Source: an uncultured Candidatus Cloacimonadota bacterium (GTDB lineage Bacteria > Cloacimonadota > Cloacimonadia > Cloacimonadales > TCS61). Taken from it: 37,808 nt of DNA. Position numbers and translations under genes: made by a program. Shown here piece by piece: positions 9,880 through 27,510 of the stretch (position 1 is the stretch's first letter; each line of letters opens with the position of its first letter). The notes under the pieces were generated by a model. That model was not told where the DNA came from. It worked only from the letters and a program-made list of their open reading frames with translations, and did not search any database. The DNA is taken from positions 1 through 37,808 of the forward strand of contig CAZAHZ010000001.1 of NCBI GenBank assembly GCA_964485055.1. Reading direction: 5' to 3'.

Positions 9880-10259
9880 TCACAATCTCATTTCCATAGT
9901 TATCCAATCCTTAGTTGTCAGAGGCTCTCAACAAAAATATAGATTTTCAAGACTACCTGCAAAATCTTCCCGCAAATACTGTAAAACCAGGATTTTCTTA
10001 CCTGTTCGGAGCAGCAAATTACTCATAAATAATATTTCTCATCTCAAAATTCCTCCTTAAGTTAAGCAATTGTGACAATTTTAGTTGTCTAGTAACAGAT
10101 TATTTAGACAAATAAATATCACTATTTTAACTTGCAATAATTCCTGGATATTTCACTTTTTTGACCAAAACAGAATTTAGGCTTAACCACAATTTAATTT
10201 TTTCACATATTTTCATCATTTACGTTCGTATCCTGCCATTTATAAGAAAGTCTTAAAGT

Positions 10260-10313
10260 GGAACAACAAAGCACAATCTGACATTTTATTGTTAGATTGT
10301 GCTTTGTTGTTTC
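10260..10313 (+). repeat. long hairpin element, family 1 copy 1 (24-bp stem, 6-nt loop); possible structured RNA
   Basis: GGAACAACAAAGCACAATCTGACA / TTTTAT / TGTTAGATTGTGCTTTGTTGTTTC. I paired it by hand: 22 Watson-Crick pairs plus 2 G-T. It is extendable to 10257-10316. The strand is assigned from the G-T (G-U) asymmetry. Confidence 0.9.
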
Positions 10314-10516
10314 ATTCTAATGTCAATAAGTGGATGATAAATATTTTAGTAATGGCAAATTATAGATGAAAAGTATAGCAAAATATAGTAAAAAACAGGA
10401 ATGTACAGGCAATTCATCAATAATGGGAATATTTTCGTGAAAATATTAATATAACAGTTGTACTTGCTAAGATGTAAGATATTCTGGTATTAGTGCGGAA
10501 TATTAAAATGTATTTG

Positions 10517-10631
10517 CTACCGTATGGGCAGACCCATGTGTCTGCCCTCTTTGCATGTTTCTAAGCTATCATAAATATAGCAGGGATTCAGGTTATATAA
10601 GGGCAGACACATGGGTCTGCCCGTACGGTAG
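10517..10631. repeat. REPIN-like inverted doublet of a GC-rich palindrome (GGGCAGAC-N6-GTCTGCCC)
   Basis: The 32-nt arms CTACCGTATGGGCAGACCCATGTGTCTGCCCT (10517-10548) and AGGGCAGACACATGGGTCTGCCCGTACGGTAG (10600-10631) are reverse complements (31 WC + 1 T-G), separated by 51 nt. Each arm is itself an 8-bp-stem hairpin. Confidence 0.85.
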
Positions 10632-10747
10632 AGGAGATATTTTTAAAATTTCGGGGGGATAGCGGTTTGTGGATAGACAAAACTTGACAGATAGAGTTGT
10701 AAAATCAGAGGTAGAAGCAGAAAATAAAAAAAGCTGAGGAGAATGCG

Positions 10748-11159: not shown

Positions 11160-12005
11160 TTAATCACTGCTATACATTAAGGTGTAGATATTAGGAATAT
11201 CAGCGATCATGTCCTGGTATAAGTAGTATAGATCATTTCGCTTAAACTTGAAATCAGGAAAGGTCTCAGTGCCCTTGAGATCACCATAAATATGACGATA
11301 TACATATTGAAAATATTCTGTAGCATGGATAGCTTCAAAATGATTCCAGGTAATCGGATCATTCATATACATAATCAGGTTTCCATAATATTCATCTATC
11401 TCTTCATCCGTTTTCAGGTTCTTTCTCAGGTCATTTATTTCAATTTCATAAGTGCTGTAATCTATGATCAGGCGATAAATATGATTTGGGGTAAAATATC
11501 CAGCAGTAATATATTTTATAGTAGAATTATAATTCCTGGTAGTTACGAATATTGGTTCATGATTTCGCATGTATTCGATATCTTTTTCCGGCATAGTGAT
11601 AAATCCGTATAATTCACAGCCTCTATCATCCATCCAATCGAGGTACTCCATGCTGGTAATATTCTGCAAGCTGTCAAGATTGGTTATTTTATCCTCAGAG
11701 ACGACACTGACTTTTTCCGGGATATAGAAAATTTCTTCGGCAAAATATCTTTGTTGGATTTCTTTAGATAGATAGGGCATAATATCAGTTCCCTGAGGAA
11801 GTTTATAAAACTCATCATCATTGTCAATATCAAACACCTTAAAATTTGGCAGATCAAATCCATGTATGGTCGTAAATCCTTCGATGGAGGTATTATCCTG
11901 AAAATGCAGTCTTACTCTCACTGATCCTAAGCATCCATAGGGAAAATCAGCTAAAAGAGCATTAAAAAATAAAATGACCAGGACGAATACAAATAACTTT
12001 TTCAT
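11160..12005 (-). CDS. secreted hypothetical protein
   Basis: ORF track. GGAGG SD upstream of the ATG. Signal peptide (KKLFVFVLVILFFNALLA). No catalytic motif recognised. Its stop is only 10 nt from the stop of the convergent thioesterase gene. Confidence 0.6.
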   Translation of the reverse strand: MKKLFVFVLVILFFNALLADFPYGCLGSVRVRLHFQDNTSIEGFTTIHGFDLPNFKVFDIDNDDEFYKLPQGTDIMPYLSKEIQQRYFAEEIFYIPEKVSVVSEDKITNLDSLQNITSMEYLDWMDDRGCELYGFITMPEKDIEYMRNHEPIFVTTRNYNSTIKYITAGYFTPNHIYRLIIDYSTYEIEINDLRKNLKTDEEIDEYYGNLIMYMNDPITWNHFEAIHATEYFQYVYRHIYGDLKGTETFPDFKFKRNDLYYLYQDMIADIPNIYTLMYSSD

Positions 12006-12121
12006 TACAGTTCCTCCAGAAAAATTTAATCAACTATAAAACAGTAAGATAAACTAAAATGTAATTGTCAAGTATTACCTAAACTGATATTTCCTGGAGA
12101 ATGTTCAGATGCCCCCAGCTT

Positions 12122-12270
12122 AGCCCTTGCGATTGGTCGATAGACCTTCGCAAGGGTCGATCAGAAGATATGAAGTATATAACATATAATAATGAATATA
12201 GTTAGCAATGCAAGTAAACAGGTGATAACGGTCAACCATTGCGAAGGTGTAAACACCATTGGCAAGGTTT
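12122..12270. repeat. second inverted doublet of imperfect palindromic elements (CCNTTGCGA..GGTN-loop-NACC..GCAAGG)
   Basis: Element A is 12122-12160 and element B is 12232-12270. The reverse complement of A matches B at 29/39 positions without gaps, by my hand alignment. Each element folds on itself. Confidence 0.7.
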
Positions 12271-23437: not shown

Positions 23438-25363
<1,926 letters not shown>

Positions 25364-25407
25364 TCACTCTTTTTTTAGTGAAATTTTTTCTTATTATTTA
25401 CAAGGTC

Positions 25408-25435
25408 AGTTTATTCTTCCTGCAAATGGTGTCAA
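25408..25435 (-). promoter_or_regulatory. sigma70-type promoter candidate for gyrBA
   Basis: On the - strand: TTGACA (25435-25430), a 16-nt spacer, then TAAACT (25413-25408). An AT-rich UP-like region lies upstream. This would give a ~55-nt leader. Confidence 0.4.
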
Positions 25436-25854
25436 ATATTTATTATATAAATAAGTTAGCTCACTTTTATGCCAAACCCCAATTTATAGGTAAATACTAT
25501 GTAAATGACTATATTATAACCATATATGATTTCGCCTTATACTTGCTCCGTGTTTTGCTCTCTCAAAACTTTTTTTATCCCCTTTATTAAGCTGTTTACA
25601 CTCCAATTTACCCGTTTTTACTATATTAGGTTACAATTTTAATAATTATAATCTTATATTGGCTTATTGCCTTATTATCAATATATTATATATAGTACAA
25701 ACCATTGTAACTTGTAGCTGATTGTTCTAACTATCTGCAATATTATATATTACATGAAATATATTACATATTTATTTACCTTCTTTTATTAATTATCCCC
25801 GCTGACACAATTATACCTGCTTCCTGCCAGCTCCTTCTAACTTGGCTGAAGAAA

Positions 25855-25920
25855 TAGAGAAGAACAACTAAACACAATCTGACATTTTTTTGTTAGATTG
25901 TGTTTAGTTGTTCTTCTCTA
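25855..25920 (+). repeat. long hairpin element, family 1 copy 2 (30-bp stem, 6-nt loop)
   Basis: TAGAGAAGAACAACTAAACACAATCTGACA / TTTTTT / TGTTAGATTGTGTTTAGTTGTTCTTCTCTA. 29 Watson-Crick pairs plus 1 G-T, at the same position as in copy 1. Confidence 0.9.
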
Positions 25921-25940
25921 GATTCAGGGTAAGGTTTTTC

Positions 25941-26027
25941 TGAAATGGGGGAGGGGGGGAGGGAATGGGAAGGGTAATTGGGAGGAGGAGAAGAAGGGGA
26001 AAGAGGTGAATGAGAAGGGAGATGGGG
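25941..26027 (+). other. 87-nt C-free, G-rich polypurine-like tract (G-free C-rich on - strand)
   Basis: There is no C between the C at 25940 and the C at 26028. By my count 49 of 87 nt are G. It contains GGGGGAGGGGGGGAGGGAATGGGAAGGG. Confidence 0.9.
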
Positions 26028-26033
26028 CTTACT

Positions 26034-26069
26034 TATAGGTCATATAGGTACTATAGGACTTATAAGACC
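26034..26069. repeat. 4 x 9-bp tandem repeat TATAGGNNN
   Basis: TATAGGTCA TATAGGTAC TATAGGACT TATAAGACC, read directly from the sequence. Confidence 0.85.
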
Positions 26070-26157
26070 GATAGATTATGGTCAATTAGATGTTATTGAT
26101 TTAGCTTAGAGGTTATAATTGATCAGAAGTGCATGTATTGGGGTTTAGGGGAAAGAA

Positions 26158-27510
26158 TTACAGGTCTTGGAGCAGGAAATCTATGGTTTGCTGACAGAGT
26201 ACTCTGCTACGGAGCTGGGATTCGCTCTCCACATAGACACGGACGATGGGTTCTGTGCCACTTTTGCGGATATGTATCCAGTGGCTGGGAGCGATGATCT
26301 TAATACCATCTGTAAAGTCAGATTGCTGATCACTGGCAAATTCTTCAGCTTTCTTCATTACGGCATCAAGTTGATCAGGTTCAACCTTGATCTTATTCTT
26401 TTGAAAATAGTAATGGGGAATGGCAGCCGCAAGTTGACTGACAGACTGATTCGATTGGGTCATATATGCCAGGATGAGAGCCATTCCGGCGGGAGCATCA
26501 CGGGTATAATGAACATCGGGGCAGATAATACCGCCATTACCTTCACCGCCAATGGGGCTTTTAAGTTCCATCATCTTTTTACCGACATTAATTTCTCCGA
26601 TACGGGTACGGACAACTGAGACGCCAAATTCTGCAGCAATATCTTCAGAAGCCATGGAGGATGAGAGATTGGTGACAATAATACCGGGACGATGGGCAAG
26701 GACGAATTTTTCTGCCAACAGCAGTGAAAATTCTTCTCCAAGGCAATTTCCATGTTCATCAATTATGCTGAGTCTATCCACATCGGGGTCAGTAGCAAAG
26801 CCAATATCTGCGTGATGAGTATGGACAGCTTCCAGTAACTGAGTTAGATTCTGGTTCAGAGGTTCGGGAGAATGAGCAAAAATGCCGTGAGGTTCTGAAT
26901 TGATCTCGATAACCTGGCATCCGAGTTCGGATAATAACCTTGGGGAGATCAAGCCTCCGGCGCCGTTGACAGAGTCTATAACGACCTTGAACCTGCGGGA
27001 ACGTATCTTGTCCAGTTCGAGGTAGGGAACTGCCAGTATTTTATTAATATGGTCAGAAATGGCAGAAGCGTAGAGAGACAATTTTCCGACCTGGTCATAT
27101 TTTACCCATTCGACAGGATCATCAAGGTGATTGAGGAAGGATTCGGCGTTTTCGGGGAAAAGGAACATTCCGTTAGCTCCGACGAATTTAAGGGCATTCC
27201 ACTCAGCGGGATTATGCGAGGCAGTGATGGCAATGCCACCACAGGCAAGAGGATCGTTTTCCACAGCCAGCAGGACAGTAGGAGTGGACACAATACCCAG
27301 ATCAGCGACATCACAACCAACGCCCAGTAAACCTGAAATAACGGCATGCAAAAGGGTGGGACCAGTGGTGCGGGAATCACGACCGACGAGGATCTTGCCA
27401 TTCTGAGAGAAAAGCCCGAACCGGGCAGCGAAATGCTGGATAATGGCGGGATCAATGGTATCACCAAAAATACCGCGTACACCGGAAACAGAGACCATGA
27501 GCTTGCTCAT
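26158..27510 (-). CDS. alpha-D-phosphohexomutase (phosphoglucosamine mutase / phosphomannomutase-phosphoglucomutase type)
   Basis: ORF track. AGGAGG SD upstream. Phosphoserine loop TASHNPAEWNALKF, metal loop FATDPDVDRL, sugar loop GGEGNGG, phosphate loop RKSGTEPIVRVY. The N-terminus SVSGVRG resembles the PMM/PGM-like subgroup more than classical GlmM, so substrate specificity is left open. Confidence 0.85.
   Translation of the reverse strand: MSKLMVSVSGVRGIFGDTIDPAIIQHFAARFGLFSQNGKILVGRDSRTTGPTLLHAVISGLLGVGCDVADLGIVSTPTVLLAVENDPLACGGIAITASHNPAEWNALKFVGANGMFLFPENAESFLNHLDDPVEWVKYDQVGKLSLYASAISDHINKILAVPYLELDKIRSRRFKVVIDSVNGAGGLISPRLLSELGCQVIEINSEPHGIFAHSPEPLNQNLTQLLEAVHTHHADIGFATDPDVDRLSIIDEHGNCLGEEFSLLLAEKFVLAHRPGIIVTNLSSSMASEDIAAEFGVSVVRTRIGEINVGKKMMELKSPIGGEGNGGIICPDVHYTRDAPAGMALILAYMTQSNQSVSQLAAAIPHYYFQKNKIKVEPDQLDAVMKKAEEFASDQQSDFTDGIKIIAPSHWIHIRKSGTEPIVRVYVESESQLRSRVLCQQTIDFLLQDL

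Follow-up and report, generated by a model that had tools for sequence, protein, structure and literature searches.

The Window and Its Two Hairpins

Cloacimonadota are uncultured bacteria that are abundant in anaerobic digesters and anoxic lakes. This work deals with a 37,808-nucleotide (nt) stretch of DNA from one of them (GenBank assembly GCA_964485055.1, contig CAZAHZ010000001.1), referred to as the window, and with two long, closely similar hairpins found in its intergenic spacers. The window is a segment of bacterial chromosome with housekeeping genes, which encode a prolyl oligopeptidase, a pullulanase-like enzyme, a thioesterase, an Omp85/PD40 protein, an MlaD/ABC system, a radical-SAM enzyme, AspS, GyrA, GyrB, GlmM, an AddAB-like helicase-nuclease, and DinB. 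GlmM of the window has 80% identity with the Ca. Stygibacter australis protein, and the remaining matches are from Cloacimonadota. The first hairpin (copy 1) lies 444 nt past the pullulanase-like gene and 435 nt ahead of the thioesterase gene, and the second (copy 2) lies 238 nt past glmM and 510 nt ahead of gyrB (Table 1). Both belong to a dispersed family of palindromes, to which we give an even chance of being a lineage-specific interspersed repeat similar to the repetitive extragenic palindromes (REPs) and their hairpin-forming doublets (REPINs), spreading or being homogenised as a hairpin-forming DNA unit.

An original prediction, made from the sequence of the window alone, had placed a 24-bp stem with a 6-nt loop at copy 1 and a second hairpin at copy 2. 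Both were confirmed, the latter with a 30-bp stem, and their folding is far better than that of shuffled sequences (z-scores of copies 1 and 2: -9.5 and -13.1 as RNA of the + strand, -7.9 and -12.4 as RNA of the - strand, -7.2 and -12.1 as DNA). Weaker, imperfect pairing reaches positions 10250-10323 around copy 1, and interrupted pairing continues to about 25841-25933 around copy 2. The two hairpins, with 15,601 nt between them, are 86% identical over a common stretch of 58 nt. The two differences per arm that had been described as compensated are indeed so (A/T and G/A in the 5' arms, each matched by a change in the 3' arm), but there is one more difference in the 3' arms, as the outermost pair of copy 1 is G.T and that of copy 2 G-C. 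Likewise, the identical core next to the loop is present and measures 12 bp (CACAATCTGACA) instead of the 11 bp initially proposed. The 30-nt core pattern occurs in the window at these two sites only; zero occurrences are expected by chance, and 100 dinucleotide-preserving shuffles yielded no match.

Both hairpins are reproduced at 99.96-100% identity by three contigs of two other European Nucleotide Archive assemblies of the same strain (ERZ27248885 and ERZ27248922), and their presence in independent assemblies rules out an assembly artefact. Another contig of the same species (L035; L numbers denote loci throughout) starts exactly at base 10260, a hint that assemblers break at the palindrome. 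No open reading frame (ORF) of at least 34 amino acids overlaps either hairpin, only short mechanical ones of 23-33 amino acids, and a search of the window for tRNA and tmRNA genes found none. A CRISPR, tandem-array, or coding origin was ruled out, since each copy stands alone and no real ORF overlaps it.

Table 1. Hairpin copies, apex subfamilies and accompanying features (positions refer to the window unless a locus is named).
Feature	Position	Sequence	Remarks
Hairpin copy 1	10260-10313	GGAACAACAAAGCACAATCTGACA / TTTTAT / TGTTAGATTGTGCTTTGTTGTTTC	24-bp stem, two G.T pairs on + strand
Hairpin copy 2	25855-25920	loop TTTTTT	30-bp stem, 97% complementary, one G.T pair on + strand
Decayed relic	L002, 3111-3182
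Apex subfamily 1		AATCTRACA	window, G51, G52, metagenome contigs
Apex subfamily 2		GGCATAACA	G52 and Stygibacter
Apex subfamily 3		GTACCCACA	L037
Apex subfamily 4		ATACCCGTA	G51 (L040)
Pullulanase-like gene	ends 9816		+ strand
Thioesterase gene	starts 10748		+ strand
gyrB	23438-25345		- strand
glmM	26158-27510		- strand
Dispersed repeat of about 145 nt	10505-10643	GGGCAGAC-N6-GTCTGCCC	two inverted hairpins
Dispersed repeat of about 145 nt, second copy	L030, 437-579		88% identical
Motif about 30 nt ahead of a TTGACA box	10645-10662	AAATTTCGGGGGGAT	common to end of G51 repeat of about 300 bp
Motif/G51 repeat of about 300 bp	L001, 5020-5350
Motif/G51 repeat of about 300 bp	L002, 2597-2922
Motif/G51 repeat of about 300 bp	L003, 4076-4345
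Motif/G51 repeat of about 300 bp	L040, 17552-17588
Imperfect inverted repeat (46 nt) within	12024-12270		spacer from 281-aa gene to Omp85/PD40 gene
Conserved blocks upstream of gyrB	25346-25680	GGTTTAAACNGCTTTATAAAGGGGATAAAAAAAGTTTT, TTGGCATAAAAGTGAGCTAACTTATTTATATAATAAATATTTGACA	- strand, about 330 nt
G/A-only tract	25940-26027		about 90 nt, + strand
Tandem 9-nt units	26030-26075	CCTATAGGN	self-complementary
Tandem 9-nt units	L020, 2510-2545	CCTATAGGN
Tandem 9-nt units	L016, 5393-5441	CCTATAGGN	beside hairpin
Tandem 9-nt units	L023, about 11680-11715	CCTATAGGN

A Dispersed Family in Cloacimonadota

The two hairpins had been taken for a family of two members. A search for the palindromic core in one genome per species (185,579 species) and in metagenomes shows instead a repeat dispersed across several genomes. 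In the genome scan, true relatives were found in just two Cloacimonadota metagenome-assembled genomes (MAGs), JAIPGO01 and JAIPGP01, hereafter G51 and G52. There are seven exact-core copies on seven contigs in G51, one in G52, and the two of the window; the metagenome scan added seven more on contigs of Ga0265594, Ga0307991, and Ga0268276, which makes 17 copies from at least five Cloacimonadota genomes or metagenomes. A covariance model built from these 17 copies, to which copies 1 and 2 score 81.7 and 84.4 bits, retrieved four diverged relatives with other apexes (L026/L027, L023/L025, L037/L038, and L040). Two further copies are decayed: a relic in L002 and the ortholog of copy 1 in L041, with five mismatches. 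All of them come from the Cloacimonadota clade near Ca. Stygibacter.

The unit of this family is the whole hairpin. The 11-nt half-site ACAATCTRACA occurs 34 times, that is, once in each arm of 17 hairpins, and there is no single occurrence in 278,547 bases. Interspersed palindromic repeats are a known kind of element, and this family is apparently undescribed for the phylum: a literature search brought up no account of repeats of this kind from Cloacimonadota, and the Stygibacter paper does not mention them. No relevant match was obtained in IMG/VR, GenBank phages, or plasmids; two matches in Staphylococcus plasmids, of 41 nt and within a gene, look like chance. Rfam gave nothing at the gathering threshold, and permissive scans yielded only sub-threshold matches to generic hairpins, all of them eukaryotic miRNA precursors. 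The other palindromes collected by the genome scan (L004-L007, L010, L011, L013, and L015) were discarded as unrelated operators or terminators of Proteobacteria, Lactococcus, and others.

Anatomy of the Hairpin Unit

From the outside in, the unit is composed of a TAAGGAG/TAAAG-like flank, the motif ACAAC, a hypervariable block of 4-5 nt, (G/A)CAC followed by a 9-nt apex that ends in ACA, the loop, and the mirror image of all these parts. The loop has 6 nt, is A/T-rich, and is asymmetric in every copy, with one T-rich strand (TTATTC, TAATTC, TTTTTT, TTTTAT, or TTATTT). Whichever DNA strand is read, A and C prevail in the 5' arm and G and T in the 3' arm. Stems measure 24-53 bp and contain 28-39% GC. 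Conservation peaks at the apex and in the mid-stem, the outer ends being the least conserved part. Four apexes were distinguished (Table 1), and more than one subfamily resides in the same genome (1 and 4 in G51; 1 and 2 in G52). L037 has the outer stem of window copy 1 (GGAACAACAAAGCAC) and L040 that of the G51 type (CCACAACAAG), each with a different apex. In G51, the palindrome spans 41-62 nt per arm with 37-53 paired positions, the outer stem is CCACAACAAGG, and both arms carry TAAGG motifs with an 11-nt period, TAAGGAGG on one and CCTCCTTA on the other, which are Shine-Dalgarno-like. The apex-centred conservation, the exchangeable apex modules at the same spacers, the stems of up to 53 bp, and the periodic Shine-Dalgarno-like arrays in one species are unusual traits.

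This architecture brings to mind a site that a sequence-specific protein would bind as duplex DNA or as a cruciform, such as the core of a tyrosine recombinase (Xer/dif-like or lox-like), an operator, or a nucleoid-protein site, in which the ACAAY and TAAGG motifs, with their period of 10-11 nt, would be accessory contacts on one helix face. In this sense, the CACAATCTAACA-N6-TGTTAGATTGTG geometry with a spacer that varies among copies is suggestive, as are the TAAGG motifs every 11 nt in both arms of the G51 copies. The hairpins are present in about ten copies per genome, all intergenic and some in divergent promoter regions, are independent of orientation, and can form a footprint-like conserved island within a diverged spacer. 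From its letters, the apex also seems to fit the integron R''/R' consensus RYYYAAC...GTTRRRY (ATCTAAC...GTTAGAT). Nonetheless, such a site is, in our opinion, quite unlikely to be the explanation. A duplex site needs no covariation between the arms in a variable block that is not contacted, yet this block is perfectly symmetric in 12 of the 17 copies. In addition, the palindromy runs far past any known core site, several apex variants coexist in one genome, the distance to gene starts is long and variable (150-700 nt), no recombinase gene was found near any copy, and numerous active recombination sites in both orientations would scramble the chromosome.

Core sites of tyrosine recombinases have two inverted binding arms of 11-13 bp around a spacer of 6-8 bp. 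The dif/pdif sites have 11-6-11 duplex cores, and the 12-6-12 geometry of the family core fits this type as well as lox-like sites, but no recombinase is encoded beside the copies and the palindrome is far longer than a core site. Integron attC sites are imperfect palindromes that are read as a folded single strand, have their consensus boxes at the base of the hairpin and contain extrahelical bases, and they occur in cassette arrays beside intI. The family shares with attC and Xer/dif sites the palindrome, the variable 6-nt spacer, and the apparent fit of the apex to RYYYAAC/GTTRRRY. However, its copies are solitary among housekeeping genes with no integrase nearby, the consensus is at the apex and not at the base, and extrahelical bases are absent.

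Covariation, Mispairs, and Strand

Among the 17 core copies, 88.9% of the alignment cells are paired and 18 of 33 pairs have changed on both sides; for the complete set of 21 hairpins these values are 87.6% and 27 of 33. None of 500 shuffles reached such a level in either set, and when the partner column was slid, 34-45% of the cells paired. It is important to note that the search pattern fixed columns 23-33 and 40-50 in the first 17 copies, the signal coming from the free columns and from the four relatives found with the model. Pairing is not universal: L028, L029, L030, L031, and L034 show uncompensated A.A, T.T, or A.G mismatches in the hypervariable block, with A.A and T.T persisting at columns 18-19 in five copies.

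The central claim of the original prediction was that pairing, and not sequence, is preserved, so that a selected secondary structure would be present, and it was added that uncompensated copies would speak against it. The covariation over 21 hairpins supports the maintenance of pairing. At the same time, uncompensated copies do exist, namely the five just mentioned and the L041 ortholog with its five mismatches, besides the decayed relic of L002, so this claim holds in part. The data single out neither strand as the folded one, and what has emerged is a repeat family rather than a structured RNA with two copies. The covariation is real, and a family of repeats that form hairpins explains it no less well than one structured RNA under selection would. 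The folding of the + strand, for which the G-T pairs of the window had been put forward, does not extend to the family as a whole: across the 17 copies G.T and A.C mispairs are about equally common (21 vs 19), which does not support a strand preference, and the wobble position is an A:T pair in most genomes. In the window lineage, the G.T pair is kept in all six exact-core copies (both of the window, L028, L030, L031, and L034) as well as in the L041 ortholog, always coupled to the T-rich loop strand. This persistent coupling indicates that the asymmetry is inherited through copying of the whole unit and is not erased by arm-to-arm correction.

The last point bears on another explanation of the paired changes, according to which they are a mechanical by-product of templated repair or strand switching between the arms, which would also lengthen the palindrome, with no structural selection involved. 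Several features agree with it. In every long copy the identity between arms is highest at the apex and falls outwards (in L003, 40 bp are perfect before the arms diverge), and L009 has a 20-bp outer stem that is unique to that copy and almost perfectly paired, something hard to obtain by point mutation and selection. The lack of wobble asymmetry between strands is also in line with this idea. We consider it improbable, since efficient correction would have removed the G.T pair, which persists in the window lineage over at least three sample sets (window, Ga0265594, and Ga0268276) and, with L041, in a fourth sample. The mismatches at columns 18-19 and the asymmetry of the loop in every copy point in the same direction.

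Turnover and Decay at Orthologous Spacers

Two spacers are occupied differently in different species. In the glmM-gyrB spacer, no such hairpin exists in the closest relative (L020, whose glmM is 92% identical) nor in L021; the GGCATAACA variant is found in G52 and Stygibacter (L026 and L023) and the ATACCCGTA variant in G51 (L040). Ahead of the thioesterase gene, the window, L041, and L037 carry the element in the spacer, and G52 (L036) and G51 (L039) do not. The ortholog in L041 keeps the place and the orientation of copy 1, next to a thioesterase that is 84% identical, and has accumulated five mismatches in addition to the G.T pair, with a fold energy of -25.6 vs -41.2 kcal/mol for copy 1. 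Hairpin identity between the window and L041 (56 of 64 positions) stands out as a conserved island within a barely alignable spacer. Decay has gone further in the L002 relic, which does not fold better than shuffled sequences (z = -0.08). On the other hand, the copies of the window and G52 are 96% identical over 52 nt, while the GlmM proteins of both organisms are only 79% identical; a consensus shared between species despite diverged surroundings fits a conserved recognition factor acting in trans. Genome-specific flavours, such as the outer stem of G51 or the G.T pair of the window lineage, are in turn as expected from proliferation within genomes or concerted evolution. Clean insertion boundaries were sought by comparing the filled spacer of the window with the empty one of L020 and had to be rejected, because the spacer is too diverged and the window-specific segment (about 225 nt) is larger than the hairpin.

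The presence of distinct apexes at the same spacers could also be seen as the mark of a new kind of hairpin element, made of a conserved ACAAC...GCAC stem with an exchangeable 9-bp apex and an asymmetric 6-nt loop. An enzyme or recombinase recognising the cruciform or the single-stranded hairpin would then swap the apex of resident hairpins at fixed spacers with no insertion at new sites, a sort of site-specific "hairpin conversion", to which the 11-nt periodic TAAGGAGG / CCTCCTTA arrays of G51 would add a second layer. This is a long shot.

Genomic Placement

All 21 hairpins of the alignment are intergenic. Regarding the 17 core copies, five are placed between divergent genes, two between convergent genes (L009 and L034), about seven between tandem genes, and three have one side off the contig. 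Among the ten copies that have a gene upstream, the loop strand is split about 5:5 with respect to gene sense. The neighbouring genes are mutually unrelated, and Pfam revealed no common mobile-element or nucleic-acid enzyme among the 30 flanking proteins that were scanned. A replication-strand bias was also considered and dismissed: local GC skew and orientation were concordant in seven cases and discordant in ten, and the contigs are too short for the skew to be informative.

The proximity of many copies to gene ends raises the alternative of a cis-acting RNA hairpin under structural selection, working as a bidirectional transcript-end element (a terminator, a 3'-end protection, or an RNase III site). 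The upper stem would be the terminator stem, and the base AACAACAAAG / CUUUGUUGUU would provide the A-tract and the U-rich tract. By arithmetic from the coordinates, eight of ten copies in tandem contexts are closer to the 3' end of the upstream gene (for instance, 20 nt in L026, 43 nt in L012, 64 nt in L032, and 66 nt in L033), and the two copies in L009 and L034 lie between convergent genes. Pairing is strongly kept, and the four stem differences between the orthologs L026 and L023 are all compensated, which requires either selection for pairing or arm-to-arm conversion. Moreover, the C-rich, G-free tract ahead of copy 2 (in glmM sense) would agree with termination by Rho and subsequent trimming to the hairpin. 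Neither window copy is a classical intrinsic terminator, as was originally stated: instead of a short GC-rich stem and a U run after a gene, the tails are interrupted T/C-rich sequences (UUUGUUGUUUCAUUCU and UUGUUCUUCUCU), through which only a lax terminator scan picks both copies. These U/C-rich tails nonetheless speak for a transcript-end role.

As a general explanation, a transcript-end role is nevertheless unlikely. Between the divergent genes that flank 5 of the 17 copies there is nothing to terminate; the stems are long and AT-rich and lack an uninterrupted U run; and classical terminators are already present 3' of glmM in L021, L023, and L040. Arm sequences of 24 nt common to several loci and species are not expected for unrelated terminators. 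The even orientation relative to gene sense, the equal numbers of G.T and A.C mispairs, the absence of copy 2 from the closest relative, and the uncompensated orthologous changes in L041 argue in the same sense. A related case is that of the DNA uptake sequences of Neisseria (DUS) and the uptake signal sequences of Pasteurellaceae (USS), whose inverted pairs act as terminators and whose single copies are abundant, also inside genes. As in these systems, one sequence is found as an inverted-pair hairpin after genes at many unrelated loci, but the half-site of the family is never single in 278 kb.

Apart from this, 7 of the 17 loci (L001, L002, L009, L014, L028, L031, and L033) border genes for type IX secretion system (T9SS) cargo or gingipain-like proteins (Por_Secre_tail, Peptidase_C25, and Chlam_PMP), the hairpin being mostly upstream of the gene. 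Long spacers that tolerate repeats might account for this neighbourhood, or the association might be genuine.

Comparison with REP/REPIN and Related Repeats

REPINs are REP doublets that form hairpins and are mobilised by the REP-associated tyrosine transposases RAYT/TnpA-REP (PMC3116915, PMC8266576). Compensatory changes across their hairpin have been documented (PMC3116915), and a conserved GTAG is a defining determinant for TnpA-REP (PMC8266576). The family resembles these elements in many respects. Its members are extragenic, dispersed, multi-copy, and lineage-specific palindromes; what replicates is a hairpin about 60-110 nt long, in which compensatory changes are common; decayed copies are found; individual copies have no adjoining transposase; and the consensus is kept across a long evolutionary distance. 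The set of dispersed intergenic copies, free orientation, genome flavours, gain, loss and replacement, decay, co-residence with other repeats, and a consensus shared by species whose neutral sites are saturated is best accounted for by a REP/REPIN-like repeat.

The unit would spread, be replaced, and be homogenised within genomes at the DNA level, by a REP/REPIN-style route in which a trans-acting enzyme would read the folded single strand. The family itself, its dispersal between genes, the covariation of the arms, the turnover at orthologous spacers, and the decay of copies are observed directly, and we infer that the unit moves, that it passes through single-stranded DNA, and that such an enzyme exists. 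Individual copies would afterwards decay neutrally or disappear, and some might secondarily become orientation-independent transcript-end or stabiliser hairpins, as suggested by the fact that survival is best just past gene ends. The family behaves like REP/REPIN elements, its membership of that class being unproven. Some differences are clear: GTAG is found 5' of the stem in only 1 of 21 copies (L030), the usual flank being TAAGGAG/TAAAG-like, and the perfect stems are of 24-53 bp, with about ten copies per MAG and not hundreds.

Several observations weigh against a REP/REPIN-like origin. A REPIN consists of two inverted REPs around a variable spacer, each REP being a small palindrome, and its cognate RAYT, a Y1 HUH enzyme, is encoded by a single-copy gene that REPs typically flank. 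The family arms (e.g., AACAACAAAGCACAATCTGACA) contain no internal palindrome, and REPIN conservation is distal, whereas here it is concentrated in the apex and mid-stem with a variable outer stem. The copy number is modest for a REP-like repeat, with at least seven exact-core copies per MAG and two in the 38 kb of the window, although breaks of MAG assemblies at such repeats may hide more copies. No transposase, integrase, or HUH enzyme lies beside any examined copy, in agreement with the original prediction, which had noted the lack of a transposase, integrase, or cas gene in the vicinity. When 280 kb of Cloacimonadota loci were searched by tblastn for a RAYT, with E. coli YafM as the query, nothing scored below E = 0.18, and this is a weak test. 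The flanks of the four copies inspected (L003, L009, L012, and L016) are free of target-site duplications, nor was any insertion or excision directly observed. The occupation of the same two spacers in several species, the island of conservation in L041, and the bias of tandem-context copies towards upstream 3' ends are signs of a host-level use, and the full compensation between L026 and L023 also counts here.

Miniature inverted-repeat transposable elements (MITEs) whose sequence folds into a long hairpin, such as Correia/NEMIS, RUP, and Nezha, offer a further comparison. They share with the family a small size, AT-richness, non-coding nature, intergenic location, multiple copies, insertion polymorphism between relatives, and a build-up in permissive spacers. 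However, the four inspected copies show no target-site duplication, the family lacks conserved outer termini, and no related full-length insertion sequence was found. Furthermore, a MITE consists of inverted terminal repeats around a unique interior, whereas the family element is one palindrome with a 6-nt centre.

From a practical point of view, the family and its covariance model provide a strain-typing marker, an explanation for breaks in MAG assemblies, and a handle toward the enzyme that would read the hairpin. The conservation of the apex and not of the base, and the species-specific apex variants at the same spacers, bear on whether REP-like elements are selfish, host-maintained, or both. 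Should the family prove to be just an analogue of REP/REPIN elements, the finding would be useful but no surprise.

Other Repeats and Sequence Features

The long spacers that carry the hairpins also house other repeat families. Between copy 1 and the thioesterase gene there is a second dispersed repeat (Table 1), which is missing in the orthologous spacer of L041 and therefore represents an insertion polymorphism. Next to it lies the AAATTTCGGGGGGAT motif, which is common to the end of a repeat of about 300 bp in G51. The copies of the latter are 87-92% identical, include a GC-rich hairpin of 21-26 bp (CCCCCCCATCCCATCGGCGC...), match nothing in Rfam, and are located 120-700 nt from the hairpins in variable orientation. 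A fixed composite of hairpin and 300-bp repeat was rejected, given that distance and orientation differ among L001, L002, and L003.

Directly between glmM and copy 2 there is a tract of only G and A on the + strand, that is, C/T-rich and G-free on the glmM sense strand, which could be a Rho-utilisation-like tract. It is absent in the closest relative (L020); similar C-rich tracts are found after glmM in L021 and L023 and beside hairpins in L016 and L031. Several species also have, 3' of glmM, tandem 9-nt units of the self-complementary CCTATAGGN. The imperfect inverted repeat between the 281-aa gene and the Omp85/PD40 gene is 79-84% conserved in the orthologous spacer of L037/L038, and it could represent either a conserved leader or a non-coding RNA. 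Finally, the blocks upstream of gyrB are conserved in six species and are probably the promoter or leader of this gene.

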